DNA of 64,000 bases from an uncultured Acidobacteriota bacterium (GTDB lineage: Bacteria > Acidobacteriota > Thermoanaerobaculia > Multivoradales > UBA5704), in contig OY969474.1 in NCBI GenBank assembly GCA_963700145.1, forward strand, positions 1,440,001-1,504,000, in the 5' to 3' direction. The notes under the pieces were generated by a model that was not told the origin of the DNA, searched no databases, and saw only the letters and a program-made list of their open reading frames with translations. Positions 2,799-62,187 of this stretch are shown piece by piece. Numbering within the stretch: position 1 is the first letter of the stretch; each line of letters starts with the position of its first letter. The position numbers were made by a program, and so were the translations under genes.

Positions 2799-3881
2799 GT
2801 GTCGGTGCGGCGGATCCTGGTAGTGGACGACCTCGAGCAGAACCGTCTGGTTCTGACGAAGATGCTGCAGCTGCTCGGCTACGAGGTCGAGACCGCCGCC
2901 GACGGCCTCGAGGCGCTGGCCAAGCTGCCGCTCGACATCGACCTCGTCCTCCTCGACGTCATGATGCCCGGCATCGACGGCTACGAGGTCGCCCGCCGCA
3001 TCCGCGCCGATCCGGCGGTGCGCGACCTCCCCGTCATCATGGTCACCGCGCTCGACCAGCGCGAGGACCGGGTGCGGGCGGTGGAGGCCGGGGCGAGCGA
3101 CTTCATCGCCAAGCCGGTGGACCGCACGGAGCTGCGGGTGCGGCTCGACTCGCAGATGCAGCTCAAGGAGGCGAAGGACGCGCTCAAGCGCCACAGCCAG
3201 GAGCTCGAGGGGAAGGTCGAGCAGCGCACCGCCGCCCTGCGCCGGGCGCTCGAGGAGATGGCCGAGGCCCAGCGCCTGACCTACGCCGCGCAGCTCGACA
3301 CCATCCACCGGCTCGTCATCGCCGCCGGCTACAAGGACTTCGACACCGCCGAGCACATCCAGCGGCTGAGCCGGCTCGGGACCGTGCTCGCCGAGGCCCT
3401 GCACCTCCCTCCCGGCGAGATCGAGGTGCTGCGCCACGCCATCCCGATGCACGACGTGGGGAAGATCGGCATCCCGGACGCCATCCTGCTCAAGCCCGGC
3501 CGCCTGACGCCGGAAGAGCGCGGCGTCATGGAGACGCACACGACGATCGGCTCGCGCATCCTCGCCGGCTCGAGCTCCCCGCTGCTCCAGGCCGGCGAGA
3601 CGATCGCGCTCACCCATCACGAGCGCTGGGACGGCACGGGCTATCCGCAAAAGCTCGCCGGCGAGGACATCCCGCTCAGCGGCCGCCTCTGCGCCCTCGT
3701 CGACGTCTACGACGCCCTCTCCTCGAACCGCCCCTACCGGCCGGCGCTCCCCGAGAGCGAGACGCTGACCCTGATGCGCGAAGGCCGGGGCACGCAGTTC
3801 GACCCCGATCTCTTCGACCTCTTCCTCGAGCAGCTCACCCGCATCCGCGAGGTCCGCGCCCAGGCGCCGGCCGGCGCGTAG
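2799..3881 (+). CDS. REC-HD-GYP response regulator (c-di-GMP phosphodiesterase, RpfG-like)
   Basis: REC motifs ILVVDD, LLDVMMP, FIAKP; HDVGKIG and HHERWDGTGYP. Confidence 0.93.
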   Translation: MSVRRILVVDDLEQNRLVLTKMLQLLGYEVETAADGLEALAKLPLDIDLVLLDVMMPGIDGYEVARRIRADPAVRDLPVIMVTALDQREDRVRAVEAGASDFIAKPVDRTELRVRLDSQMQLKEAKDALKRHSQELEGKVEQRTAALRRALEEMAEAQRLTYAAQLDTIHRLVIAAGYKDFDTAEHIQRLSRLGTVLAEALHLPPGEIEVLRHAIPMHDVGKIGIPDAILLKPGRLTPEERGVMETHTTIGSRILAGSSSPLLQAGETIALTHHERWDGTGYPQKLAGEDIPLSGRLCALVDVYDALSSNRPYRPALPESETLTLMREGRGTQFDPDLFDLFLEQLTRIREVRAQAPAGA

Positions 3882-3930
3882 GCGCCGGCGACGCTTCTCC
3901 GCTGGCTAGGCTCGAGTTCTCCGCTCGCCA

Positions 3931-4863
3931 TCACTTTTCCACGGGGACCGCCAACCGTTCGAGGACGCGGGCCGCCCTCGGCAACTCGCGGGGCGGCGTT
4001 TTCCACTCTCGACCCACCTGTGCCTGATGTTTCCCGGGACTGCTCCAGTGGACGAAGACCCAGTCCACCGGGTCGAGCCAGCCCTTGTGGGGCGGCCGGG
4101 CGGACTGCCTCAGGCTGGCGACGAGGCCGCCCTCGAAGCGGACCACATGCAGCGGCAGGAGCAGCTTCTCCGGGAACGGCCCGGCCGTCGCGCGCGCCTT
4201 GAGCTCCCGGCGCAGCAAGGGTCGTTCGGCGAGTAACCGGCGCAGCCAGCGGAGAGAGGCGAAGTAGTAGGGGCTGCGGCTGGTGCCGGGGAGCTCCAGC
4301 TTCTCGGCCGCGACGATCTGTCCTTTCTCCCGCCGGTGCGGCAGGCCGAGGACTTCGCGGACGAGCGCGGCGGCGGCTTGGTTGCGTGGGAGCGCGGTCT
4401 TCGTGCGCAGGCCGGGGGCCCAGGGCTCGCCGTCGGGCGAGGCGAGCGCGTTGTAGAGGCGGAGGGCGCGGCCGAGCCAGTCGAGGGCGAGGTTCCTGAG
4501 CTTGGGGCGGGGGTGCTCGAGGGTGGCGCAGAGGATGGCGGTGTGGGCTTCGAGGTGCATGCCGGCGTGGGGGTCCGGGCAGAGGCACTCGGTGCGGTAC
4601 ATGCCCTGCTCGCGCTCCAGCTCGTAGAGCTTGACGACCTGGGCGAAGGCCAGGCGGCGCTCGGCGGGCTCGACCTCGGCCAAGAGCACCCGCCAGAGCC
4701 AGCTGGCGGCGAGCATGGCCTGGTAGTTGGCGGTCTCGGCCCAGGTGCCGTCGTCGAGGCCGAGGATCTTGCGGAGGTAGGGATCCTGGCGGGGGTCGGA
4801 GACGACGCGGCCTGCGAAGCAGGCGGCGAGGCGGGCTTGGAGGCCGACGTGGGCGGGTTTCAT
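3931..4863 (-). CDS. Hypothetical protein, 310 aa
   Basis: Protein-like composition with GC3 bias; no family recognised; contains CLCPDPHAGMH. Confidence 0.7.
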   Translation of the reverse strand: MKPAHVGLQARLAACFAGRVVSDPRQDPYLRKILGLDDGTWAETANYQAMLAASWLWRVLLAEVEPAERRLAFAQVVKLYELEREQGMYRTECLCPDPHAGMHLEAHTAILCATLEHPRPKLRNLALDWLGRALRLYNALASPDGEPWAPGLRTKTALPRNQAAAALVREVLGLPHRREKGQIVAAEKLELPGTSRSPYYFASLRWLRRLLAERPLLRRELKARATAGPFPEKLLLPLHVVRFEGGLVASLRQSARPPHKGWLDPVDWVFVHWSSPGKHQAQVGREWKTPPRELPRAARVLERLAVPVEK

Positions 4864-4888
4864 GGGTGGCTTCGGGGTCAGGAAACGA

Positions 4889-4910
4889 CGGGGGGCGTCA
4901 CCGCCCCCCG
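4889..4910 (-). terminator. Hairpin downstream of the 127-aa gene
   Basis: CGGGGGGCG-tcac-CGCCCCCCG, followed on the minus strand by TCGTTT. Confidence 0.5.
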
Positions 4911-4923
4911 CGGTGCGCTCAGC

Positions 4924-5307
4924 CTACTTCGTCGCCGCCGGAGTGGGCTCCGACGCCGGTGCCGGCGGCGGGGTCTCGGGCTTCTTCGTGCGCCGCCCGC
5001 CGCGCGGCCGGAGGCCGAACTCGTGGAGCACCTTGTTCTTGGTGCCAAACTGACCGCGCAGGGCGGCGTCGGCCTGGCTGCGCAGCTCGACGCCGCGGGC
5101 CTCGGCTCGCCGGCGCTTCTCGTTGGTCTCCCGCAGGCGCGCGGTGTAGATCTCCTGCTGGGTCTCGAGGCCCCGGGTCTCCGCGAGCCAGGCTTCGAGG
5201 TCGGTCTGCAGCGGCTCGAGAAGCGGGATCTCGGGCAGGCGCGCCTTGAGGTTGGTGCTCAGGATGTCCATCGCCGCGATGAGGTTGATCAGGTTCCGGT
5301 CAGGCAT
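4924..5307 (-). CDS. Small coiled-coil protein with basic/Pro-rich tail (FGxKxxxLxEFG motif)
   Basis: SD AAGGAG upstream; helical heptad pattern; tail RPRGGRRTKKPETPPP. Confidence 0.8.
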   Translation of the reverse strand: MPDRNLINLIAAMDILSTNLKARLPEIPLLEPLQTDLEAWLAETRGLETQQEIYTARLRETNEKRRRAEARGVELRSQADAALRGQFGTKNKVLHEFGLRPRGGRRTKKPETPPPAPASEPTPAATK

Positions 5308-5392
5308 GGGGGCTCTCCTTCAATCCAGACAGTGGACGAAAGCGCCAAGCGGAGGATTCCGCCGGCGCGGGTGAGAGGGAGGGGCGGCGGGG

Positions 5393-5665
5393 GAAGCCTC
5401 GCCACGCGTTGGCGAAGCTTCCCTTTTCAAGAGCGAAGCTTCCCCACCGGAAAGCGAAGCTTGGCTGTTCAAAGGGGAAGCTTTCCCGTCCGAGAGCGAA
5501 GCTTCGCTTTTCAAAAGACAAGCTTCGCCATCGGAAAGCGAAGCTTCGCCTTTCAAGAGGGAAGCTTCGCCAACGGAAAGGGAAGCTTCGCTTTTCGAAG
5601 GTGAAGCTTCGCCATCGGAAGGGGAAGCTTCGCTTTTCAGAGGGCAAGCTTCCCCAGTCGGGAGG
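5393..5665. repeat. 21-bp-period tandem array 1: 13 units, palindromic core GAAGCTTC
   Basis: Cores at 5393, 5414 ... 5645. The 13-bp linkers alternate between GCTTTTCAA-type and GCCATCGGA-type. Confidence 0.97.
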
Positions 5666-5708
5666 GGTCGAGCCGCTTCCGGGTTGTTTTGTTCCCTCAT
5701 GAGCGGGT

Positions 5709-5737
5709 ATTTAACCCGTTCAGTGTGGCGAAGTCAA
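5709..5737 (-). promoter_or_regulatory. Putative sigma70 promoter reading into array 1 and the 127-aa gene
   Basis: TTGACT-17 bp-TTAAAT on the minus strand, in an AT-rich patch. Confidence 0.45.
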
Positions 5738-5859
5738 CCCTTCACCATGCGCGAGGGGCGGAAGGACAAGGCGGCGGAGGCCTTCGCCCGCGGCGGCGGA
5801 CTTCCGGCGGGCAGCGAGGCTCGCGCTCGAGATCGGGGGACGAGGGGAAGGCGGGCGAG

Positions 5860-6070
5860 CACTCCCTGCGAGCTGCCCTCGGCGAGGTCCCCGACGGCTA
5901 CGCCGGCGCGCTCCGCCCCGGCCTGCCGGCCGCGTGGCCGGCCTTCCTCGACAAGCTCCTGGCGAAGCAGCCGGCGCAGCGCTACGGCTCGGCCGAAGAG
6001 GTGCTGGCAGCGCTCGCGGCGCTGCCGGAGGCGGAGGACGAGACGGTCGTGCTCAAGAGGCAAGCGTCAG
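5860..6070 (+). pseudogene. Remnant of a Ser/Thr kinase C-lobe end
   Basis: LRPGLPAAWPAFLDKLLAKQPAQRYGSAEEVLAAL resembles Hanks kinase subdomain XI; no upstream kinase motifs; boundaries approximate. Confidence 0.55.
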
Positions 6071-6648
6071 GGACGCTTGATCAGGCTTCCCGTGAGCCGG
6101 TTGACCGAGGCGTCCGGGAAGACGCCGCCGTCGGGAGCGAGCTGCCCCTTCGCCACGATCGCCGCGCGCAGCGTGAACTTGGAGACGGGACGCGCGCCTA
6201 TGCCGACGAGCCAGCCCTCGATGTGGTCCTTTTCGTCGCACCGTTCGCCGAGCGCCTGGTGGGAGCCGCTGCGGCTGATGAGCTCGAGGATGCCCCGGAA
6301 GTAGAGAACGTCAGGCTGCGGCGGGTTCTTCTTGACGATGCGGAACTGGCCCATGAAATGGGCGAAGCCGTCGGCGCGGGCGATGGTGACGCCTTTCGCG
6401 GTGAGCTGGGTGGACGGCCAGATCGCGAGGCTCTCGTCGCACTGGAGAGCCGCCGTGATCCGCCAGGTGAAGGTGGTGACGAAGCGGACCGTCCTTCCGG
6501 CCCCGCCTCCGCCTTCGCACGTGTACGACGACGGCTTCGCGCCGTCGAAGACGCCGTCGAAGGTGCGGTCGACCCTGAAGAGACAGTAGCTCACGTTCGC
6601 CGCAAGGCCGGGGATCGTCACGTCCGGGAACGAGCTCAGAGGGGGCAT
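6067..6648 (-). CDS. Hypothetical beta-rich protein, 193 aa
   Basis: Strong SD GGAGGTGA before ATG; coding-like codon usage. Confidence 0.75.
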   Translation of the reverse strand: MPPLSSFPDVTIPGLAANVSYCLFRVDRTFDGVFDGAKPSSYTCEGGGGAGRTVRFVTTFTWRITAALQCDESLAIWPSTQLTAKGVTIARADGFAHFMGQFRIVKKNPPQPDVLYFRGILELISRSGSHQALGERCDEKDHIEGWLVGIGARPVSKFTLRAAIVAKGQLAPDGGVFPDASVNRLTGSLIKRP

Positions 6649-6690
6649 GGATCACCTCCATTCCCGAGTGTAGAACGATCTCCAGCCGCG

Positions 6691-7656
6691 TCATACCGTG
6701 ACCACGACCTTCCCCCGCGCGTGCCCCTCTTCCAGGTACCGGATCGCTTCCGGCGCCTCGCGCAACCCGTAGCTCTTGTCGAGAACCGGCGTCACCTTGC
6801 CGGCGGCGATCAGGTCGCGCAGGAAGGTCAGGTCCTCCTTGTTCCGCCGCGCCATGGACACGACGAGCTTCTGGCTCACGAACGGCGACACCAGGAGCGT
6901 CTTGAGCAGACGGAGGAGCGGGCCGACCCACGGGCCGCCCGAGCCGCCGATCACGACGTAGATGCCCTTGGGCTCGAGGGCGCGCCGGCAGGCCGACAAG
7001 GAGTGGTTGCCGATGCAGTCGAGGATCACGTCGTAGCGGCGCCCGGTCTTGGTGAAGTCCTCCCGCCGGTAGTCGACGACGCGGTCCGCGCCGATCGAGC
7101 GCACCAGGTCCACGTTCCGCGTGCTGCAGACGCCGGTCACCTCGGCGCCGAGCGCCTTGGCGATCTGCACGGCGAAGGTGCCCACGCCTCCCGCCGCGCC
7201 GTTGACCAGGACCGTCTGGCCCGGCCGCACCCGCCCCCGGTCGCGCAGGCTCTGCAGCGCGGTGAGCGCCGCCATCGGCACCGCGGCGGCCTGCTCGAAG
7301 GTCATGCTCGGCGGCTTGACGACCAGCGCCGACTCGGCAGCGCACACGTACTCGGCGAGGGCCCCGCGGCAGGCGCCGAAGACCTCGTCGCCTACTTTGA
7401 GCTGCGTCACGTTCCTGCCCACCGCCTCGACCCGGCCGGCCACGTCGGCGCCTAGCCGCGTCTCCTTCGGCTTGCGCAGCCCGGTGCCCAGGCGGAAGAG
7501 GTACGGCGTGCCGCGCATGCTGTACCAGTCGAGCGGATTGACCGACGCCGCGCGCACCCGCACCAGGACGTCGTCGTCCCCGACGGCCGGCTGCGCGACC
7601 TCCTCGCAGCGCAGGACGTCGGGCGAGCCGTAGCGGTGGTAGACGATCGCCTTCAT
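6691..7656 (-). CDS. NAD(P)-dependent MDR-family oxidoreductase (quinone reductase-like)
   Basis: MKAIVY..YGSPDVL, AASVNPLD, VNGAAGGVG, HARGKVVV. Confidence 0.92.
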   Translation of the reverse strand: MKAIVYHRYGSPDVLRCEEVAQPAVGDDDVLVRVRAASVNPLDWYSMRGTPYLFRLGTGLRKPKETRLGADVAGRVEAVGRNVTQLKVGDEVFGACRGALAEYVCAAESALVVKPPSMTFEQAAAVPMAALTALQSLRDRGRVRPGQTVLVNGAAGGVGTFAVQIAKALGAEVTGVCSTRNVDLVRSIGADRVVDYRREDFTKTGRRYDVILDCIGNHSLSACRRALEPKGIYVVIGGSGGPWVGPLLRLLKTLLVSPFVSQKLVVSMARRNKEDLTFLRDLIAAGKVTPVLDKSYGLREAPEAIRYLEEGHARGKVVVTV

Positions 7657-28054: not shown

Positions 28055-28112
28055 GCGCGGTGCGGCGCCGCGGCCGTGACAGACCCATGCGCCGGTCCGT
28101 ATGCTCCGCCGC

Positions 28113-31100
28113 ATGTTTTCGATCCGCCGTACCCTGACGTCCTGCTGTCTGCTCGCCTTCTTCGCCGCCCTTCCTCTGGCGGCGCAGCCCCTTCCCTGCC
28201 GGCCGTGCGCCGGCCTGCGCGTCGAGACGGCGTTCGCCGGCGAGGCGCTGGAGGCGTTGGCCGGGGCGCTCCCGGCCGGCGCCGACGCGACCGTCGTCCT
28301 CGCCTGGGAGGCGCCGCTCGACGGCTCCGCCGACTTGGCGCCCCTCGAGCGCGCGGCGGCCCTGGCGCCCCCTCCGGCTCCCGTCCCGGCGGCCGCCCCG
28401 CCAGCGCCCGCCGCCCCGGCGCCGCGGCTCATCCCCTGGCTCACACTCCCCTTCCGCACCCCGTCGCCCCTGGCGCAGCAGGCGGTGCGGCTGCAAGGCG
28501 AGCTGGACGCGGTGTCGCGCCTGGCCGCCGCGGCGCCGCCCGGCACCTTCTTCCAGATCGCCTGGCGGCCGGAAGGGCTCGAGGCGGCGCCGCTCGACTT
28601 CGCCGAGTACGCCTTCCTGCTCAAGCGGGCGGCGGTGGCGGTGACCGGTGCGCGACCGGACGGCCGGGTGGTCACCCAGCCTCTGCGCGCCGGCGCCGAG
28701 GCGGTCGAAGCGCTGTACGCGCAAGAGGTTGCGGCCTACCTCGAGGCGGTCGCGGTGCTTCCGGGCAGGCCCGAAGCGGTCGCGGCCACCGCCGAAGCGG
28801 TCGAGCGGCTGGACCCCGGGCGGCTGGTGGTTCTGGACGCGCCGCCGCTGCCGGACGATCCGCAGACTCTCCCGGCCGAAGCGGCCCGCTGGGCCGTCCG
28901 CGGGGTGTCGCTGGTCCTGTTTCGGGTAGAAAGGGAACAATCGGAGCCCGCGGAAGGCTCCGAAGGGGCTGCGGAAGCTTCCCCGGCGCCTCCGGAAGCT
29001 TCCGCTCCTGCTCCGGAAGCTTCCGTACCTCCTGCGGAAGCTTCCGCTTCGCCTCCGGAAGCTTCCGTACCGCCTCGGGAAGCTTCCGCTTCACCTCCGG
29101 AAGCTTCCGTACCTCCCCGGGAAGCTTCCGCTCCGCCTCCGGAAGCTTCCGCTCCCCCCCGGGAAGCTTCCCTACCCGCTCCGGAAGCTTCCGCACCGTC
29201 TCCGAAAGCCTCCGCGGCGCCCGGGGAGCCTCTCTCCCTACCTGAATCCTTCTTCCAGGCCCTCACCCCCCTCTCCGTCCTGGCCCGGGAGTTCGCCGGA
29301 GATCTTTCTTACGATCCCACTTCGTCTCCGCAAGGCTCCGGCGAGGCCTGGGCCTTCGTGCGCGGGGAGGACCTCGCCCTCCGGGTCATCGCCGTCACCC
29401 CCGCCGCGCCGCAGGTCGACCTCCGCTTCCCCGACCCGCTGCTCGGCAGCCCGGTGATCGTGGACGCCCCGACCGGCCGCACCGTCGAGGCGGCGGGCAA
29501 CCGGGTGGGGGGCGCCTACGTCGTCCGCCTCTACCAGCCCCGCCCGGTGACCCTCCTCCGGCTCGAGCGGGTGGAGCAGGTCGAGCTCGAGGCGGTCAAG
29601 GAGAGGGTCACCGTCGCCGGCGAGCGGGAGGTCCCCGTCGAGGAGATCCTCCGCCGCCTCCAGGCCTTCGAGGACGCCCAGGCGCGCCGCCTCCTCAACT
29701 ACCGCGCCGTCAACACCACCCACCTCCGCTTCCAGGTCGGGGCCAGCTCGCAGAGCTTCGAGGCGACGCTCCAGGGGCCGTTCTTCTGGACCCCGGCGAG
29801 CGGCGCCGACTGGGTCTGGCAGGACCTCTTCGTCAACGGCGTCCGCTGGCGCGCCAAGACGATCCCCGAGATCCCGCTGGTGCAGCCGGAGAAGGCGGCG
29901 GCCATGCCGCTCGAGATCCACTTCACCCGCCAGTACCGCTACCGCCTGCGCGGCAGCGAAAAGATCGACGGCCGCGACGGCTGGGTGGTGGACTTCGCCC
30001 CGACCGCCCTCGAGACCGGGGAGGGGGGCAAGCTCTACCAGGGCACTGTCTGGGTGGACAAGCAGCTCTCCTCGCGCCTGCGCACCCGCGCCGTGCAGGT
30101 GGGGCTCGAAGGGGAGGTCATCTCGAACGAGGAGACCCTCCACTACACGCCGATCGACGCCGAGGGGCGGGCCGCGCCCTGGGGGGCAGCGGGGAGCTTC
30201 GTCCTGCCGCTGCGCATCCTGGCGCAGCAGATCCTCTCGGTCGTCAACGCGGCGACGGTCGTCGAGCGCGAGACCAACCTGACCGAGGTCAAGGTCAACG
30301 ACCCCGGGTTCGAGCAGGCGCGGCAGGCGGCCGCGGAGTCGGACCTGACGATGGTGCGCGACACGCCGCAGGGGCTGCGCTACCTGGTCAAGGACGAGGC
30401 GACCGGCGAGCGGGTGGTCAAGGAGGGCTTCGACAGCAACAAGCTGTTCCTCCTGGGCGGCCTCTTCTACGACGACGCCCTCGACTTCCCGCTGCCTCTG
30501 GCCGGCATCAACTACTTCTCCTTCGACTTCCGCGGCACGGGCCAGCAGGTCAACGCCTTCTTCGGCGGCGCTCTCCTGACCGTGGACGTCGCCGAGCCGC
30601 GCCTTTTCGGCAGCCGCTTCGACGCCGGCGCCGACTTCTTCGCCCTGGCGGTGCCGCTCGCCGACACCGTCTGGCGCGACGACGACGAGGTGCACGAGGA
30701 GGAGGTCGAGACCCGCTCGGGCAACGTCGGCTTCAAGCTCGGCCGGCCGCTCGGGAACTTCGTCAAGGTCTCGTCGGAGTACACGCTCGCCCACCACGAC
30801 TACGGCACGACCGACAACACCATCGCCGGCTTCGTCCCCCCCGGCAACCACCTGACGCACTCGCTGCAGCTCAACGGCCGCTTCGCCCGCGCGGGCTGGC
30901 GCGTCGGGTTGGAGGGGAGCCTGCACCGCCGCTCGGAGTGGGAGCCCTGGGGGCTGCCGGGGAACCCCGACTACTTCGCCGAGGCGCAGGACTACTCGCT
31001 CTGGGGGGCGACGCTGTCGAAGAACTGGTACCTGCCCTACTTCCAGAAGATCGGCGCCGAGGTGAACTACCTGGGCGGCTCCGACCTCGACCGCTTCTCG

Positions 31101-31421
31101 AAGTACGAGTTCGGCTTCTTCGGCGCCAGCCGCGTCCACGGCTACCAGAGCGACCGCGTGCGGGCGACCGAGGTCACCGCCGGGCACCTCTCCTACGGCT
31201 TCGAGATCGGCGAGGCCTTCCGCCTGGAAGCGGTGGCCGACGCGGCGCTCGCCACCGACGAGGACGCCGGCCTCGACCAGGAGCTGCTCGCCGGCATCGG
31301 CGTCAACGGCACCTTCCTCGGCCCCTGGCAGACGGTCGTCAACCTCGACCTGGGCGTCCCGGTGCAGGGGCCGGACGACGGCTTCGTCCTCTACGTCGTG
31401 TTCCTCAAGCTCTTCCGATGA
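28113..31421 (+). CDS. Large secreted/outer-membrane multidomain protein (MucB/LolA-like middle, probable C-terminal beta-barrel)
   Basis: Signal peptide; YRYRLRG...WVVDF.P...YQGTVWVD; amphipathic beta strands ending VVFLKLFR. Start 28113 or 28101. Confidence 0.7.
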   Translation: MFSIRRTLTSCCLLAFFAALPLAAQPLPCRPCAGLRVETAFAGEALEALAGALPAGADATVVLAWEAPLDGSADLAPLERAAALAPPPAPVPAAAPPAPAAPAPRLIPWLTLPFRTPSPLAQQAVRLQGELDAVSRLAAAAPPGTFFQIAWRPEGLEAAPLDFAEYAFLLKRAAVAVTGARPDGRVVTQPLRAGAEAVEALYAQEVAAYLEAVAVLPGRPEAVAATAEAVERLDPGRLVVLDAPPLPDDPQTLPAEAARWAVRGVSLVLFRVEREQSEPAEGSEGAAEASPAPPEASAPAPEASVPPAEASASPPEASVPPREASASPPEASVPPREASAPPPEASAPPREASLPAPEASAPSPKASAAPGEPLSLPESFFQALTPLSVLAREFAGDLSYDPTSSPQGSGEAWAFVRGEDLALRVIAVTPAAPQVDLRFPDPLLGSPVIVDAPTGRTVEAAGNRVGGAYVVRLYQPRPVTLLRLERVEQVELEAVKERVTVAGEREVPVEEILRRLQAFEDAQARRLLNYRAVNTTHLRFQVGASSQSFEATLQGPFFWTPASGADWVWQDLFVNGVRWRAKTIPEIPLVQPEKAAAMPLEIHFTRQYRYRLRGSEKIDGRDGWVVDFAPTALETGEGGKLYQGTVWVDKQLSSRLRTRAVQVGLEGEVISNEETLHYTPIDAEGRAAPWGAAGSFVLPLRILAQQILSVVNAATVVERETNLTEVKVNDPGFEQARQAAAESDLTMVRDTPQGLRYLVKDEATGERVVKEGFDSNKLFLLGGLFYDDALDFPLPLAGINYFSFDFRGTGQQVNAFFGGALLTVDVAEPRLFGSRFDAGADFFALAVPLADTVWRDDDEVHEEEVETRSGNVGFKLGRPLGNFVKVSSEYTLAHHDYGTTDNTIAGFVPPGNHLTHSLQLNGRFARAGWRVGLEGSLHRRSEWEPWGLPGNPDYFAEAQDYSLWGATLSKNWYLPYFQKIGAEVNYLGGSDLDRFSKYEFGFFGASRVHGYQSDRVRATEVTAGHLSYGFEIGEAFRLEAVADAALATDEDAGLDQELLAGIGVNGTFLGPWQTVVNLDLGVPVQGPDDGFVLYVVFLKLFR
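28953..29233. repeat. 21-bp-period GGAAGCTTCC array inside the CDS (EASxPPx heptads)
   Basis: 11 perfect cores at 28974...29184 plus degenerate flanking units at 28953, 29205 and 29226. Confidence 0.96.
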
Positions 31422-50081: not shown

Positions 50082-50840
50082 ATGACCGCCGCCTACACTC
50101 CGTCGGAGCTGATGGTCTGCCGCGCCGCCCGCGAGCTACGCGACGGCGAGGTCGTCTTCGTCGGCATCGGCCTGCCGAACTTGGCCTGCAACCTAGCGCT
50201 CCGCCGGCACGCCCCGGAGCTGGTTCTGATCTACGAGTCGGGCGCGGTCGGCGCGGTGCCGGAGCGGGTGCCGGTGTCGATCGGCGACCCAGCGCTGGTC
50301 ACCGGCGCGCTCGCCGTCTGCTCGATGCAGGAGGTCTTCACCAACTACCTCCAAGGCGGACGGATCGACGTCGGCTTCCTGCAGGGTGCGCAGATCGACC
50401 GCCACGGCAACCTCAACACGACGGTGATCGGACCGTACGAGCGCCCGGCGGTGCGCCTGCCCGGCAGCGGCGGCGCCTGCGAGATCGCGATCCTGGCCAA
50501 GCGGGTCGTGGTGGTCGCCCGCCAGACCCGGCGGAGCTTCCCCGAGCGCGTCGATTTCGTGACCTCCCCAGGCTTCCTCGACGGCGGCGACGCGCGCCAA
50601 CGTCTCGGCATGCCCGGCGGCGGTCCGTCGCTCGTCGTCACCGACCTCGGCTGCTACGACTTCGTGGACGGCGAGATGACGCTGGTCTCGCTCCATCCGG
50701 GAGTGACGCTCGAGCAGGTGCGGGCCGCGATCGGCTGGGAGCTGCAGGTCACGGACGACCTCGCGACCACCGAGCCGCCGGGCGAGGACGAGCTTCGCGT
50801 GCTGCGGGAGCTCGACCGCGACTGTCTCTATCTCGGCTGA
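50082..50840 (+). CDS. CoA-transferase subunit B
   Basis: VFVGIGLP, LIYESG (catalytic Glu), AQID..GNLN, RLPGSGG. Confidence 0.92.
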   Translation: MTAAYTPSELMVCRAARELRDGEVVFVGIGLPNLACNLALRRHAPELVLIYESGAVGAVPERVPVSIGDPALVTGALAVCSMQEVFTNYLQGGRIDVGFLQGAQIDRHGNLNTTVIGPYERPAVRLPGSGGACEIAILAKRVVVVARQTRRSFPERVDFVTSPGFLDGGDARQRLGMPGGGPSLVVTDLGCYDFVDGEMTLVSLHPGVTLEQVRAAIGWELQVTDDLATTEPPGEDELRVLRELDRDCLYLG

Positions 50841-50866
50841 CGCCACTTCGTCGCTGGTATCGTAAA

Positions 50867-50927
50867 CTCAAACCCGGGGCCTGCAGCTGATGCTTGGCGG
50901 CGCCGCTGAGTCCCGGCAGCGTTGGGC
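50867..50927 (+). mobile_element. attC-like integron recombination site 1
   Basis: AAC-ccggggcctGcagc...gctgagtcccgg-cagc-GTTGGGC; 61 bp; imperfect inverted repeat with a bulged base. Confidence 0.6.
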
Positions 50928-51001
50928 GTCGGAAGAAGCGCCGCCTTACTGCGGCCGATCTTCCTAGATCTCCGTCCCCCCAATAGCGAGGAGCAGGGCA
51001 A

Positions 51002-51754
51002 ATGACTAATACGCATCTCGGAGCGAAGCTCCTGTCCACTCTCCTCTGGCGGGGGCTTGCCGTTCTCACTAGCCATCGAGACGACAAGCGCCGCCCGCAT
51101 GACGCGACGGCGTTGTCACATCCATCCGATGCCGAATCAGCCGCTCAGGCACAGTTTCACGCGGCTGAATATGCCTCCGAGAGAAACAGCGTGGACGTCT
51201 GGAAGACACTCCAATACGCACTTGTGCCGATCATGCTCAATGTGTGGTATCTCCTGATCCAGGTTTCTTCGATCATGCCGCTTGTCGTCTTCAGGTGGGC
51301 GTGTGCCGCGGTCCTTCCTCTGTGCTTGATTGCCTATCAGAAGGCCATGGTCGACGCATTGACAGGCGTACTGCTCATCGAGGAGCGCGTTCGGCCTCTG
51401 GCTATTCGACTGGCTGGCACAGACGAATTCTGGCTCCATGAACCGGTGTATCGGAAGCAGGTACCTCCGGATGCTGCATATGGGTGGTACACACCCCCCA
51501 TCCTCTCATTCTTGTCACCGCTGGCAATGTTAGCTTACCGCGTTACCGTAGATCCTTCTTTGCCGCGCGTCATTTCGTGGGCCGACATGGTTGGCTACAC
51601 GCTTTGCTGCTTAGCGGCACGGTTCGTCGGCGGTCTTAGCAAGAAGGGGCTCGCACTCAATCGGGACATTGACAAACATATTCGCAAGCGCGACTTCAGC
51701 TGGCTCAGAGCTGAAGCGCGCCTCTCTAGCCTGCCCTTTGGTAGGTCGAGTTAA
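51002..51754 (+). CDS. Hypothetical four-TM membrane protein, lower GC (cassette-like)
   Basis: 250-aa ORF with SD GAGGAG and atypical codon usage. Confidence 0.7.
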   Translation: MTNTHLGAKLLSTLLWRGLAVLTSHRDDKRRPHDATALSHPSDAESAAQAQFHAAEYASERNSVDVWKTLQYALVPIMLNVWYLLIQVSSIMPLVVFRWACAAVLPLCLIAYQKAMVDALTGVLLIEERVRPLAIRLAGTDEFWLHEPVYRKQVPPDAAYGWYTPPILSFLSPLAMLAYRVTVDPSLPRVISWADMVGYTLCCLAARFVGGLSKKGLALNRDIDKHIRKRDFSWLRAEARLSSLPFGRSS

Positions 51755-51773
51755 GTTTCTTAGCCATGGCGCT

Positions 51774-51866
51774 GAGCTGGTAGGCGAGGACGCTCGTCTG
51801 CCGGGTCACGCCAACCAAGTCGCCGAGCGGCACCGGATCGGCAGCGACAGCGCCGCCTGGCCGCTG
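51774..51866 (-). pseudogene. Relic fragment of a yfcC homolog
   Basis: Aligns to 56629-56722 with 8 substitutions and one 1-bp deletion. Confidence 0.85.
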
Positions 51867-52016
51867 GAGGCCCAACCAGTCGAACTGCGACGGCGAACAG
51901 CCGGCGGTTATCCCTTTCGTCGGTCGGTTGACGGAGCGAGGCTCGGGAGGGATCCCAGAGAGGCGGGAGCTACGGTAGGAACGGCTGAGGATAAGGGAGC
52001 AAGCGTTCCGGACATA

Positions 52017-52247
52017 TCCTCAGCGGCTGATACGACGTCCTCAGCCGCTGATACGACATCCTCAACGCCTGATACGACATCCTCGGCGGCTAATACGTTG
52101 TCCTCAGCGGCTAATACGACCTCCTCAGAGCTTCCGGATACATCCTCAGCGGCTGATACAACATCCTCAGGGGCTGATACGACATCCTCAGGGCCAGATA
52201 CCGCATCTCCAGGCCCTGGGGAGACGTCCGGAGGCCCCCCGACGACC
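52017..52247. repeat. 21-bp-period array, consensus TCCTCAGCGGCTGATACGACA
   Basis: Nine clear and two degenerate units; internal palindrome TCAGC-N-GCTGA. Confidence 0.93.
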
Positions 52248-52806
52248 TCCTGAGAGGACGCGCCGAGGTCCTCCGTCGCCGGGCGCCTCGCCCGCCGACC
52301 GGATCGTCACCGGGCCGTTGACTCCCGCGCCTGGTGAGGGGCGGGACCGCGCGCTAGGGCGATTGAGGGGTTGGGCCTCGGCCGTTCGTTGTTCATCTTG
52401 CAGGGCAACGTAAGGAGCTTCGCATGAGCCATTTCCTCGGGGTCGCCGTCCACGACGGCCGCACTCTCAACCAGACCACAGGCCTTGACCTGACACCTCG
52501 CGTCGGCTCGCTCGGCGGCCCCATAGGTGGTGGTGATCCTGATGCCGAAATCGGACCAACCCTGAACGACGCCTTAGTCGGACGCTTCAGCCCGCAGGAG
52601 CGCCGGTCAGGCGGATCACGGTCCGCTTCGGCGGGCCATGACTAACTGACCGGTGATCACATGGGCCTCGAGCCACTCGCTCCGGCGCTGCATTCTGCTC
52701 CCCTCGCTCCAGATGAAGATCGGAAGCGCAGATTCAGGCAGGCATTCGGCCGTATAGCGCGGCTTGAGCCTGCGAAAAGCTCTACATAAACCTAAGGAGA
52801 CGCATT

Positions 52807-61897: not shown

Positions 61898-61914
61898 GGC
61901 CGCTTTTCGAGAGG

Positions 61915-62187
61915 GAAGCTTCCCTACCGGAAAGGCAAGCTTCGCTTTTCAAGAGGGAAGCTTCGCCTTTGAAGAGGGAAGCTTCGCCATCCAAAAGGGA
62001 AGCCTCGCTTTTCAAGAGGGAAGCTTCGCCATTCAAAGGAGAAGCTTAGCTTTTCAAAAGGGAGGCTTCCCTACCCGAAGGGGAAGCTTCGCTTTTCAAA
62101 GGTGAAGCTTCCCTTTCCGAAGGCGAAGCTTCGCTTTTCAAAAGGGAAGCTTCCCTTTCGGGGAGGCAAGCCTCCCCTTGCGAGGAA
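61915..62187. repeat. 21-bp-period tandem array 2: 13 units, core GAAGCTTC
   Basis: Cores at 61915, 61936 ... 62167; linker types and orientation match array 1. Confidence 0.97.

Follow-up and report, generated by a model that had tools for sequence, protein, structure and literature searches.

A lineage-specific gene-plus-array module in an uncultured Acidobacteriota bacterium, with a small helical protein as candidate partner of its palindromic arrays

The stretch of DNA analyzed here (the window, 64,000 nucleotides from an uncultured Acidobacteriota bacterium) contains one copy of a lineage-specific gene-plus-array module, in which the gene for a 127-aa all-helical protein lies beside a tandem array of palindromes. 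Comparison of the sequences makes this protein the first concrete candidate for a protein that partners these unexplained arrays. The genome encodes 16 paralogues of the protein, and 15 have a palindrome array with a 20- or 21-bp period 27-196 bp upstream; the figure for the remaining called genes is 49 of 3664 (Fisher p of about 1e-26, which is not a clean probability because the paralogues are kin). Decayed GGGAnnnnTCCC-like units lie upstream of the sixteenth. The link between gene and array is far beyond chance. A cognate module had been proposed in the first-pass annotation of the window, and the proposal is supported by the arrays upstream of 15 of the 16 paralogues, by array types that track the protein, and by recurrence of the block at an orthologous locus, L046. 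The features discussed below are as follows.

5709..5737, minus strand: TTGACT-17-TTAAAT, a -35/-10-like box at the upstream edge of the conserved block
5412..5661, no strand assigned: tandem array of type A, non-coding, 12 units of 21 bp (TRF)
5335..5368, minus strand: GC-rich hairpin (5368-5342) and then CUUUCGU, -25.1 kcal/mol, z -4.4
5320..5700, minus strand: open frame through the array, EAS heptads, 126 aa, judged not to be a gene
5314..5320, minus strand: Shine-Dalgarno (SD) sequence AAGGAGA, 6 nt 5' of ATG 5307
4924..5307, minus strand: gene for the 127-aa all-helical protein, GC3 0.94
4879..4926, minus strand: GC-rich hairpin directly 3' of the stop codon, at the downstream edge of the conserved block
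61901..62158, no strand assigned: orphan type A array flanked by two convergent genes and a candidate site for the 127-aa protein to act in trans

TRF reads the window array as 11.6 copies of period 21 with a 42-bp super-period (81% matches, score 298). The 12 AAGCTT sites are spaced exactly 21 bp apart; each unit is centered on GAAGCTTC within a core G(C/G)GAAGCTTC, and two alternating linkers, CTyTTGAAAA and CTTTCCGATG, give rise to the super-period. The cores are 0.85 identical at every lag, and the linkers are 0.42 identical at odd lags and 0.72 at even lags, where composition-matched random 10-mers reach 0.26. Across all 15 gene-linked arrays, only 0-7 of 40-42 columns fall below a 50% majority. 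Since the palindromic cores are two helical turns apart, all of them lie on one face of the duplex. The GC content of the window array is 0.55, compared with 71.5% for the genome.

The -35/-10-like box that had been proposed upstream of ATG 5700 is indeed present on the minus strand (TTGACT 5737-5732, a 17-nt spacer, TTAAAT 5714-5709, 8 nt 5' of the ATG). A consensus scan of 3800-6800 returned 0 sigma-70-like sites, having missed the box because TTAAAT lacks A at position 2, and both of its terminator-like matches are array palindromes. A similar box is found 5' of the array at L046 and at the paralogue locus L008; it is absent 5' of the array at another orthologous locus, L156. In the interval between array and SD, the sequence of hairpin 5368-5342 looks like a terminator or an attenuator, and L046 keeps an equivalent in which UU is changed to CC, turning G.U pairs into G-C, followed by a U5 tail. 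The GC-rich hairpin reported to follow the 127-aa gene is likewise there (core stem 4911-4888, -30.2 kcal/mol, z -2.0). Homology between the window and L046 begins at about the -35-like box and ends just past this last hairpin, and the block between them recurs in L046 as one unit in another gene context, with the array cores conserved and the linkers diverged. Inspection of the block ends by eye revealed neither terminal repeats nor target duplications. Four soil DNA runs yielded contigs of relatives, one of which keeps synteny with the 310-aa gene downstream; in another, the stretch upstream of the array is replaced. Array lengths differ among these contigs, including by 84 and 147 bp (4 and 7 units), a weak signal in which the differences are only partly multiples of 21. 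We also considered the 310-aa gene as a constant partner and rejected it, as a full homologue occurs at only one other locus and fragments at two, and it is absent from L046; the segment 5761-6075 on the plus strand, read by eye as a kinase C-terminal remnant, matched 0 Pfam families.

The AF2 model of the 127-aa protein (mean pLDDT 85) contains helices at residues 6-22, 28-87, and 92-97 and no strand, with a disordered tail from about residue 100 that leaves an ordered part of ~97 residues. Pfam, PHROGs, and NCBIfam returned 0 families for this protein (E<=1 in Pfam) and for its 310-aa and 193-aa neighbors. A PDB profile search returned coiled-coil proteins only, which amount to noise (best E 0.0027), Foldseek found no match to the model in the PDB at E<=0.001, and a wide structural comparison with VIA reached a best Z of 7.1 with generic helical hairpins, under the meaningful level for long helices. 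Matches in the ESM Atlas are to unnamed Acidobacteriota clusters only, and our literature searches found no description of the family or its arrays. The protein is uncharacterized, lies outside any Pfam, PHROG, NCBIfam, or solved family, and has no recognizable nucleic-acid-binding fold. Modeling as a homodimer gave a score of 0.73 (runs of 0.73, 0.73, and 0.72), with the best of three controls at 0.00. In calibration, the 0.73 mark was met by 20 of 30 proteins solved as one-chain pairs and 1 of 23 solved as single chains, counts that are only a rough guide here because an alignment of our own was used as input. At least 95% of contacts agree between runs, the partner pLDDT is at least 87, and the modeled chains run antiparallel about a dyad that falls on the conserved ARLRE 56-60. 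We note that the protein is predicted on this basis to be a long-helix antiparallel homodimer, a two-fold-symmetric rod.

The aligned family confirms a C-terminal motif, G.K..KL.EFG, that the first-pass annotation had proposed for this lineage: G88 and P101 are invariant, L94 is conserved at 97%, E96 at 85%, and F97 and G98 at 82%. The Arg/Lys tail noted alongside it exists in the window protein (net charge +4) and is not a family trait, as the tail ranges from -4 to +17 across 33 aligned sequences, with PRGGRR-like tails in some members and neutral or acidic ones in others. The charge of the window protein is modest and its basic tail is not conserved across the family; the segment from residue 51 to 100 is basic in all but one of the 33 sequences (mean +4.2). 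The conserved N-terminus is the start in all 16 paralogues (ATG in 13, GTG in L003, L004, and L005), and a GGAG-type SD lies within 25 nt 5' of the start in every one except L010.

At E<=1e-3, 1302 cluster representatives (50% identity) match the family, with 7-26 matches per genome, and in the samples searched the family and its arrays are limited to one taxonomic family. The iterative HMM that picked up the paralogues was built on the protein domain only, leaving out ORFs that read through arrays; a metagenome scan with the single 127-aa protein found only 5 loci. The expected association of homologues with arrays extends to three sister genera, where an array lies within 800 bp of the gene in 35 of 55 scored loci (16 upstream, 19 downstream) and TRF finds none in the other 20. 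A 400-kb sample of one other-genus genome contains only 7 arrays. Because the array may stand on either side of the gene, it is a linked site and not an obligatory leader; the earlier suggestion that it is transcribed as a leader fails as a general rule, and in the window, the terminator-like hairpin separates array and SD. The GAAGCTTC/21-bp pattern itself is found at 62 loci of many phyla among 185,579 species genomes, most of which are near-perfect young repeats or have no shared neighbor gene. Only 3 of these loci include the 127-aa gene, all in Thermoanaerobaculia.

Array types differ from paralogue to paralogue, orphan arrays of the same types occur elsewhere in the genome, and each multi-copy type has one linked paralogue. 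The window gene is linked to GAAGCTTC type A (6 arrays) and L008 to GAAGCTTC type B (6 arrays), while the GAGATCTATCTC type (10 arrays) belongs to L001, GGATACATCC (5 arrays) to L003, GGGAAAGCTTTCCC (5 arrays) to L011, GAGGAAACATCCTC (3 arrays) to L006, and CAAGCGTAC (3 arrays) to L009. A seventh array, at 5034824, was put with type B by 8-mers only and carries no subtype. These types come from a redone clustering, as a first 9-mer single-linkage clustering merged unrelated ones. Type A is kept in the orthologues L046 (89%) and L156 (92%), and type B is kept in L139 (99% to L008) and L149 (72%). Core words are common to 9 of 12 pairs at 70% protein identity or above versus 10 of 1055 pairs below 60%, although this co-variation, tested on 47 usable protein/array pairs, is partly inherited synteny and three orthologous loci were found via the GAAGCTTC pattern itself. 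Paralogues that are 73-78% identical, and near-identical over residues 50-100 (L003, L005), adjoin quite different arrays. In the duplicated modules L001-L005, the 127-aa-type protein is 54-78% identical, compared with 95-99% for neighbor X, 81% for Y, and 70-89% for Z, and it is generally more diverged than those three neighbors; the PCD-like ORF (57-90%) is about as diverged, and the arrays differ.

The genome holds about 124-150 arrays on one chromosome, only 15 of which adjoin a 127-aa-type gene, and many array types have no such gene. The orphan arrays are not biased toward promoters, with 50 between tandem genes, 35 between convergent genes, 29 between divergent genes, and 10 inside ORFs. 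One and the same type recurs at 3-10 scattered places that have no flanking sequence in common, and one type B array is inserted in frame within a real gene, whose GC3 is 0.49 in the inserted part and 0.81-0.98 outside it.

Our preferred reading, which we hold tentatively and at somewhat less than an even chance, is that the arrays of each type are bound at their palindromic cores by the dimer of the matching paralogue. Each paralogue's dimer would be the putative reader of its core and would coat the array cooperatively, and we infer DNA rather than RNA as the target. At its own gene, a dimer on the array may control expression by feedback; elsewhere, it could mark or organize the sites of matching arrays, with five more type A arrays available to the window protein, including the one at 61901-62158. 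If binding does occur, the protein would provide a compact new scaffold for recognizing DNA or RNA, one that exists in many natural specificities, and a way into the question of how an abundant, uncultured lineage of soil bacteria organizes or marks its chromosome. We further regard it as possible, if doubtful, that the family is a new class of sequence-reading protein, made up of antiparallel helical dimers of ~100 residues, each paralogue reading a different palindrome, having its own reference array, and acting on matching arrays chromosome-wide. Such a class would give a widespread soil lineage a natural code, with many addresses, for docking or for marking the chromosome, and its recognition rule could be read from dozens of natural protein/array pairs. 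If there is no binding, the co-inheritance of gene and array would still need explaining, for example by a mechanism that spreads arrays even in frame inside genes.

That the array acts as RNA is rather unlikely in our estimate. It would be transcribed from box 5709-5737 as a hairpin-rich RNA ending at hairpin 5368-5342 and be bound or used by the protein dimer, either as in TIGR-Tas, with another protein in the place of Tas, or with the dimer acting as a Rop-like binder of hairpins. In both the window and L046, the array is preceded by a promoter-like box and followed by a terminator-like hairpin, which is consistent with such a transcript, although L156 has no such box. The arrays of L001-L005 lie between two same-strand ORFs, with gaps in five loci of 27-41 bp that are too short for a separate promoter. 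The RNA fold of the window array is strong (z -8.9), but this is expected of any row of palindromes. The linkers are not unique spacers, as their identity at even lags shows, and orphan arrays occur in any orientation or context, one of them in frame inside a gene. The Nop domain expected of a TIGR-Tas protein, a coiled-coil hairpin joined to a C-terminal domain of ~150 residues, has 0 matches in the whole genome (PF01798), four control archaea being positive. Tas dimerizes via a coiled coil, and its NOP core spans ~214 residues (10.64898/2026.09.09.750476). A coiled-coil dimer is predicted here as well, but the ordered part of the 127-aa protein is less than half of that core in length.

Just as unlikely, as we see it, is that something else reads the arrays, be it an XRE-type HTH protein, a PCD/DCoH-like protein, or an unlinked factor, with the 127-aa protein only a co-factor or an array-regulated gene product. 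The 127-aa protein, as described above, shows no known DNA-binding fold, and candidate readers are close at hand. Nine of the 16 loci have XRE HTH_3 genes no more than about 1.3 kb away from the array, and such genes also adjoin several arrays without a 127-aa-type gene. Eight of the 16 have PCD-like (Pterin_4a) ORFs at a distance of 86-326 bp from the array. Nine of the genome's 10 PCD-like ORFs are at these loci, and in three other-genus loci, they directly adjoin the gene. However, both kinds of partner are absent from the window locus and from about half of the loci, and the 127-aa gene is the only one found with an array in all of them. The HTH proteins of L002 and L004, 99% identical, adjoin two different arrays, so the HTH cannot set the type.

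By analogy with RAYT, the arrays may instead be a self-propagating (selfish) repeat family, in which the product of the gene-linked "master" copy helps to spread or maintain its own type; we consider this quite improbable. The scattering of types without shared flanks, the type B array inserted in frame in a real gene, the promoter-to-hairpin block in a different gene context in L046, the weak length differences in the soil contigs, and the confinement of family and arrays to one taxonomic family would all fit such spreading. Nuclease, recombinase, and transposase domains were not found in the protein or its constant neighbors, however, the block ends look plain by eye, and conserved cores with drifting linkers in orthologous arrays fit a bound site better than junk.

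It is very improbable indeed that the array is translated, whether into a heptad peptide of its own or into repeats that extend the N-terminus of the protein. The first-pass annotation correctly read EAS-type heptads in ORF 5320..5700, which ends in TGA 5322-5320 overlapping the SD (5320-5314), and the gene frame is open back through the array in L046, L139, L149, L156, and six loci of the window genome, with one array tolerated in frame within a large gene; but the ORF has no coding signature (GC3 0.52, and 0.46-0.60 in all frames over the array, versus a mean of 0.926 and a 5th percentile of 0.81 for long called genes), four of six frames are open across the window array, 20-bp-period arrays are unable to hold a frame, the paralogues have their own SDs and starts, and the stop that separates array ORF and gene in the window is replaced by TCG in L046. 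Given this low GC3 and the open frames, the EAS-heptad ORF is an artifact of the palindrome, and the heptad peptide proposed earlier is not upheld.

Returning to our preferred reading, in which the dimer binds its own arrays, several known systems invite comparison. H-NS and Lsr2 join a coiled-coil oligomerization domain to a folded DNA-binding domain at the C-terminus that carries a Q/RGR hook. The 127-aa protein has a helical N-terminal part and a predicted dimer, only a disordered tail past residue 100 (PRGGRR-like in some members of the family), and no Pfam match. For iteron-type replication control, Pfam shows no Rep family among the neighbors in the window or at other loci, and ~150 arrays lie on one chromosome. 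DCoH/PCD pairs with the helical dimerization domain of HNF-1, and a Pterin_4a-like ORF similarly lies across the array from the helical-protein gene in 8 of 16 loci, with none at the window locus; some of these ORFs are shortened, without the central family profile (positions about 57-88).

TIGR arrays have 5-15 units with short repeats at ~20-nt intervals and a ~40-nt super-unit. They may stand on either side of the associated gene, end in a terminator-like hairpin, and carry locus-specific repeats; TIGR-Tas has two distinct alternating repeats, variable guide spacers of 9-12 nt, and guide RNAs of ~36 nt (PMC12045711, 10.64898/2026.09.09.750476). The present modules are alike in repeat spacing, super-unit, position on either side, following hairpin, locus-specific repeat, and (predicted) coiled-coil dimer. 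They differ in having one palindromic repeat rather than two, and linkers that form two related alternating families rather than variable spacers. Box C/D motifs were not noticed in the array, although we did not search for them systematically.

In REP/REPIN-RAYT systems, a genome has several paralogous genes, each flanked by its own class of palindromic repeat, with more copies dispersed. The modules here share this arrangement, but they consist of long phased tandem arrays instead of single or paired hairpins, and the 127-aa all-helical rod has no HUH/Y1 transposase domain by Pfam.

Plasmid partition systems pair a centromere-binding adaptor with an arrayed site (ParR/parC of R1 and pSK41, SopB/sopC of F, TubR/tubC); the adaptor is a small dimeric protein encoded beside short phased repeats, which differ between systems. 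As in ParR/parC and TubR/tubC, a phased row of repeats adjoins a small-protein gene, here up- or downstream, and autoregulation through the array is plausible. Among the window neighbors and 38 neighbors at 15 other loci, Pfam shows no actin-like, Walker-type, or tubulin-like NTPase (ParM, ParA, TubZ). Unlike ParR (ribbon-helix-helix) and TubR (winged-helix), the modeled protein has three helices and no strand and belongs to 0 Pfam families, and unlike partition systems, the family has 16 members on the chromosome, every one paired with an array type of its own, and many orphan arrays of the same types are spread over that chromosome.

The locus lies on the minus strand, and its parts are as follows.

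5737-5732 and 5714-5709, minus: -35/-10-like box (TTGACT, 17 nt, TTAAAT), read from the sequence
5700, minus: ATG of an array-spanning ORF
5412-5661: tandem array, from TRF
5368-5342, minus: conserved GC-rich hairpin, followed by a short U-rich tail; separates the array from the Shine-Dalgarno sequence (SD)
5320-5314, minus: SD, AAGGAGA
5307 (ATG) to 4926-4924 (TAG), minus: gene for the 127-aa helical protein
4911-4888, minus: core of a second hairpin, 3' of the 127-aa gene

The array has a period of 21 bp and 11.6 copies, with a 42-bp super-period (81% matches, score 298), and contains 12 AAGCTT sites at exact 21-bp spacing. When it was cut at the palindrome into 11-nt cores and 10-nt linkers for lag comparison, the cores, G(C/G)GAAGCTTCn, were identical at 0.85 at all lags. 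Linker identity was 0.42 at odd lags and rose to 0.72 at even ones (random 10-mers of matched composition: 0.26), so that two linker families, CTyTTGAAAA and CTTTCCGATG, take turns along the array. In one soil-metagenome contig, window 5640-6063, from the array to a 193-aa gene, is swapped for 289 other letters; the plus strand of the window segment resembles a protein-kinase end by eye, with no Pfam matches.

The source genome, a single contig of 5.46 Mb with 71.5% GC, holds exactly 16 members of this protein family, as determined by a domain-restricted HMM over all ORFs, tblastn with all 16, and a genome profile search. All 16 start at the conserved N-terminus (13 with ATG, three with GTG), and a GGAG-type SD lies ≤25 nt before the start in every paralogue except that at L010. 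Among the repeats listed by TRF genome-wide, periods of 21 (n = 114), 42 (n = 33), and 20 (n = 21) reveal a 20/21-bp excess; the listed repeats of 20/21-bp period merge into 150 arrays, some GC-rich coding repeats included, that make up 0.5% of the genome, and 124 of these (median length 198 bp) have a recurrent 8-mer core. The first-pass annotation had proposed the promoter, array, and small helical gene as a cognate module, and the array enrichment near homologues that it anticipated is borne out. An array lies 27-196 bp upstream of the start in 15 of the 16 paralogues vs 49 of the 3664 remaining genes predicted with a crude caller based on third-codon-position GC (GC3) (Fisher p about 1e-26, which overstates independence as the paralogues are kin, though their arrays differ). 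At the remaining paralogue, L007, the upstream region carries decayed units resembling GGGAnnnnTCCC, and so does that of its relative L048. In three other genera, where 57 loci were fetched and 55 were scorable, an array (period 19-22 or a multiple, ≤800 bp) was found in 35 of the 55, 16 times upstream of the gene and 19 times downstream; TRF detected none in the other 20. That its side differs between genomes argues against the array being a leader of necessity and in favour of a site physically tied to the gene, and the array as a leader, which the first-pass annotation had envisaged, does not hold as a general rule. We tentatively regard protein and array as a cognate pair, the best-supported explanation, and infer that the one binds the other: a two-fold-symmetric dimer would read a palindromic core that recurs at intervals of two helical turns, and the helical-protein gene would be retained next to one copy of the site that its product reads.

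Multi-copy array types have one gene-linked copy each: core GAGATCTATCTC in 10 arrays (linked paralogue L001), GGATACATCC in five (L003), GGGAAAGCTTTCCC in five (L011), GAGGAAACATCCTC in three (L006), and CAAGCGTAC in three (L009). For several array types the linked paralogue is absent. The GAAGCTTC arrays number 13, one of them a 74-bp array at 5034824; the other 12 were inspected and divide cleanly into two subtypes. Type A, with AT-rich linkers, comprises six arrays, including those at window 5412 and 61901-62158, the latter an orphan (no adjacent paralogue gene), and its partner is the 127-aa gene; type B, of the form CCGGAAGCTTCC with GC-rich linkers, comprises six, including window 28972, and its partner is paralogue L008. 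A type B array of 11 units (28941-29240) lies in frame within a 1106-aa gene (ORF 28101-31421, plus) and translates as PEAS(A/V)PP repeats; with GC3 at 0.49 vs 0.81-0.98 on either side in the same frame, it looks like an insertion or expansion within coding sequence. Another 21-bp array, at 52016-52213 (unit ATCCTCAGCGGCTGATACGAC, second variant at 52140-52213), sits within about 1.5 kb free of called genes (50840-52425), and its core resembles, by eye, the L002-linked GGTATCAG...CTGATACC type.

The array subtype is retained by orthologues in other genomes: type A arrays accompany L046 (reached via the protein, 89% identical) and L156 (92% to the 127-aa protein), and type B arrays accompany L139 (99% to L008) and L149 (72% to L008). 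The GAAGCTTC pattern itself led to L156, L139, and L149, so that for these three only the A/B assignment is informative. From the window to L046 the cores are unchanged and the linkers have diverged. Homology spans from the -35-like box to just past the post-gene hairpin, and the flanking genes differ (ORF translations read by eye give the end of a sugar-transferase on one flank and genes of lasso-peptide type on the other); this block of roughly 830 bp thus behaves as a single unit. We compared 47 protein/array pairs, scoring as shared at least two common core 8-mers. Sharing was seen in 9 of 12 comparisons at protein identity of at least 70%, in 0 of 14 at 60-70%, and in 10 of 1055 below 60%, nine of these ten being type A vs type B. 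L180/L181 form a tenth pair in the highest group, with CGTTTCACC in common by eye. The observed mean identity was attained in 0 of 2000 label shuffles. Much of the 8-mer signal is inherited synteny, and it is thus evidence of co-inheritance, not specificity. Array counts per 400-kb sample, some coding repeats included, were 17 in the source genome, 7 in a gene-bearing family member, and 1 in the single negative genome, of the same order. Runs of four or more GAAGCTTC words exactly 21 bp apart were seen at 62 loci (L095-L156) in species genomes of many phyla, including Myxococcota, Gemmatimonadota, Spirochaetota, Bacteroidota, Cyanobacteria, and Firmicutes; some of these loci (L133, L150, L152) have conserved cores and variable linkers, as in the window array.

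AF2 (33 sequences; mean pLDDT 85) predicts helices at residues 6-22, 28-87, and 92-97, followed by a disordered tail. Prediction with two copies of residues 1-112 gave homodimer scores of 0.73, 0.73, and 0.72 in three runs (best of three controls, 0.00), with contact agreement of at least 95% and partner pLDDT of at least 87; the 0.73 mark is attained by 20 of 30 proteins whose solved structure is a pair of one chain and by 1 of 23 solved as single chains, an approximate calibration as a custom alignment was used. Contacts 47-64, 40-75, 54-54, and 58-58 describe antiparallel pairing, and the dyad of the predicted dimer coincides with the segment of highest conservation, A56-R57-L58-R59-E60; R59 does not vary, and R65 is 94% conserved. 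The model supports, but does not prove, pairing as a homodimer. Residues 1-50 are acidic (mean charge -3.7) and residues 51-100 basic (+4.2), and tail net charge varies between -4 and +17 across 33 aligned sequences. Fold and sequence searches connected the 127-aa protein with none of the known families that bind DNA or RNA.

A mechanism in which the array acts at the RNA level is unlikely. The hairpin (window 5335-5368, minus) and its U-rich tail are kept at L046 (640-700), where substitutions turn G.U pairs into G-C pairs, and judged from sequence it may be a terminator or attenuator for read-through out of the array.

We consider it similarly improbable that a different protein binds the arrays, with neighbours among the candidates. 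A larger module recurs at L001-L005: HTH_3, ORF X (260-319 aa), a Pterin_4a (PCD/DCoH)-like ORF, array, helical-protein gene, Y, (310-aa gene), and Z. Identity between copies is 95-99% for ORF X, 81% for Y, 70-89% for Z, 57-90% for the PCD-like ORF, and 54-78% for the helical protein. The arrays are unlike between copies, and at L002 and L004 the HTH proteins are 99% identical and the arrays different; the variable core is therefore the array plus the helical-protein gene, and similarly the PCD-like ORF. Of the genome's 10 Pterin_4a-like ORFs, nine are separated by 86-326 bp from a linked array; they account for 8 of the 16 loci (L001-L005, L009, L014, L015), where the array sits between ORF and helical-protein gene. 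The tenth looks like the housekeeping enzyme. Four were above the Pfam cut-off and one below, and some array-side copies are shortened to about 71 aa, without the central profile part (positions ~57-88). In other genera the order of array, ORF, and gene varies, and in three loci the ORF directly adjoins the helical-protein gene. The window locus has neither an HTH gene nor a PCD-like ORF, and the 310-aa gene downstream of its helical-protein gene is full-length at only one other locus. XRE-type HTH_3 genes (142-189 aa) adjoin arrays at L008 (3041-3565), L011 (4629-5198), L012 (3069-3506), and others; HTH_3-adjacent arrays also occur without a helical-protein gene, at genome positions 1752065, 5221516, 32886, 1365071, and 2408130. 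Beside the duplicated module at L003 is a Mutator-family (IS256-like) transposase gene (5656-6948, minus), and directly downstream of the L010 paralogue is a VapB/VapC (PIN) toxin-antitoxin pair (4463-5088, plus).

Orphan arrays lie in 50 tandem-gene gaps, 35 convergent and 29 divergent ones, and inside 10 ORFs, without promoter bias against background spacers >150 bp (673/322/326 tandem/convergent/divergent). At the orphan 61901-62158, which begins 4 bp past the upstream gene's stop and ends ~60 bp before a convergent gene's end, a promoter context is impossible. Among 1.84 billion cluster representatives, the profile of the protein family matches 1302 at E ≤ 1e-3, of which 583 reach E ≤ 1e-10. 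Among 101 sampled genomes of the class the family occurs in four, the source genome and all three other sampled genera of its taxonomic family (7, 25, and 26 matches per genome), and was not found in the 97 from other families; among 201 sampled genomes of the phylum it occurs in the source genome only, besides one weak 65-residue match.

A selfish repeat family of REP/RAYT type, which its protein would help to spread or maintain, is quite unlikely. The coding reading, in which the array is translated as a heptad peptide, is close to excluded. ORF 5320-5700 is present, with EAS heptads because GAAGCTTC translates as E-A-S from either strand, and we rejected it as a gene: its GC3 is 0.52 (0.46-0.60 across the array in every frame) vs 0.94 for the 127-aa gene and a genomic mean of 0.926 (5th percentile 0.81; 2490 long called genes), four of six frames are open across the array, and its stop is TCG at L046. 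Moreover, the period is 20 bp in many comparable arrays, and such a period is unable to keep a reading frame. At several loci the helical-protein gene's own frame does stay open backwards across the array, but the paralogues have their conserved N-terminus and, save L010, their own SD.

Pfam, PHROG, and NCBIfam hold no family model for the 127-aa protein, and our literature search turned up no account of either the family or these arrays. TIGR-Tas (PMC12045711; preprint 10.64898/2026.09.09.750476) is the closest published array architecture. In contrast to TIGR-Tas, the 127-aa protein has no Nop domain and the window linkers are not variable spacers, and the helical protein/array pair is therefore not a member of that system.
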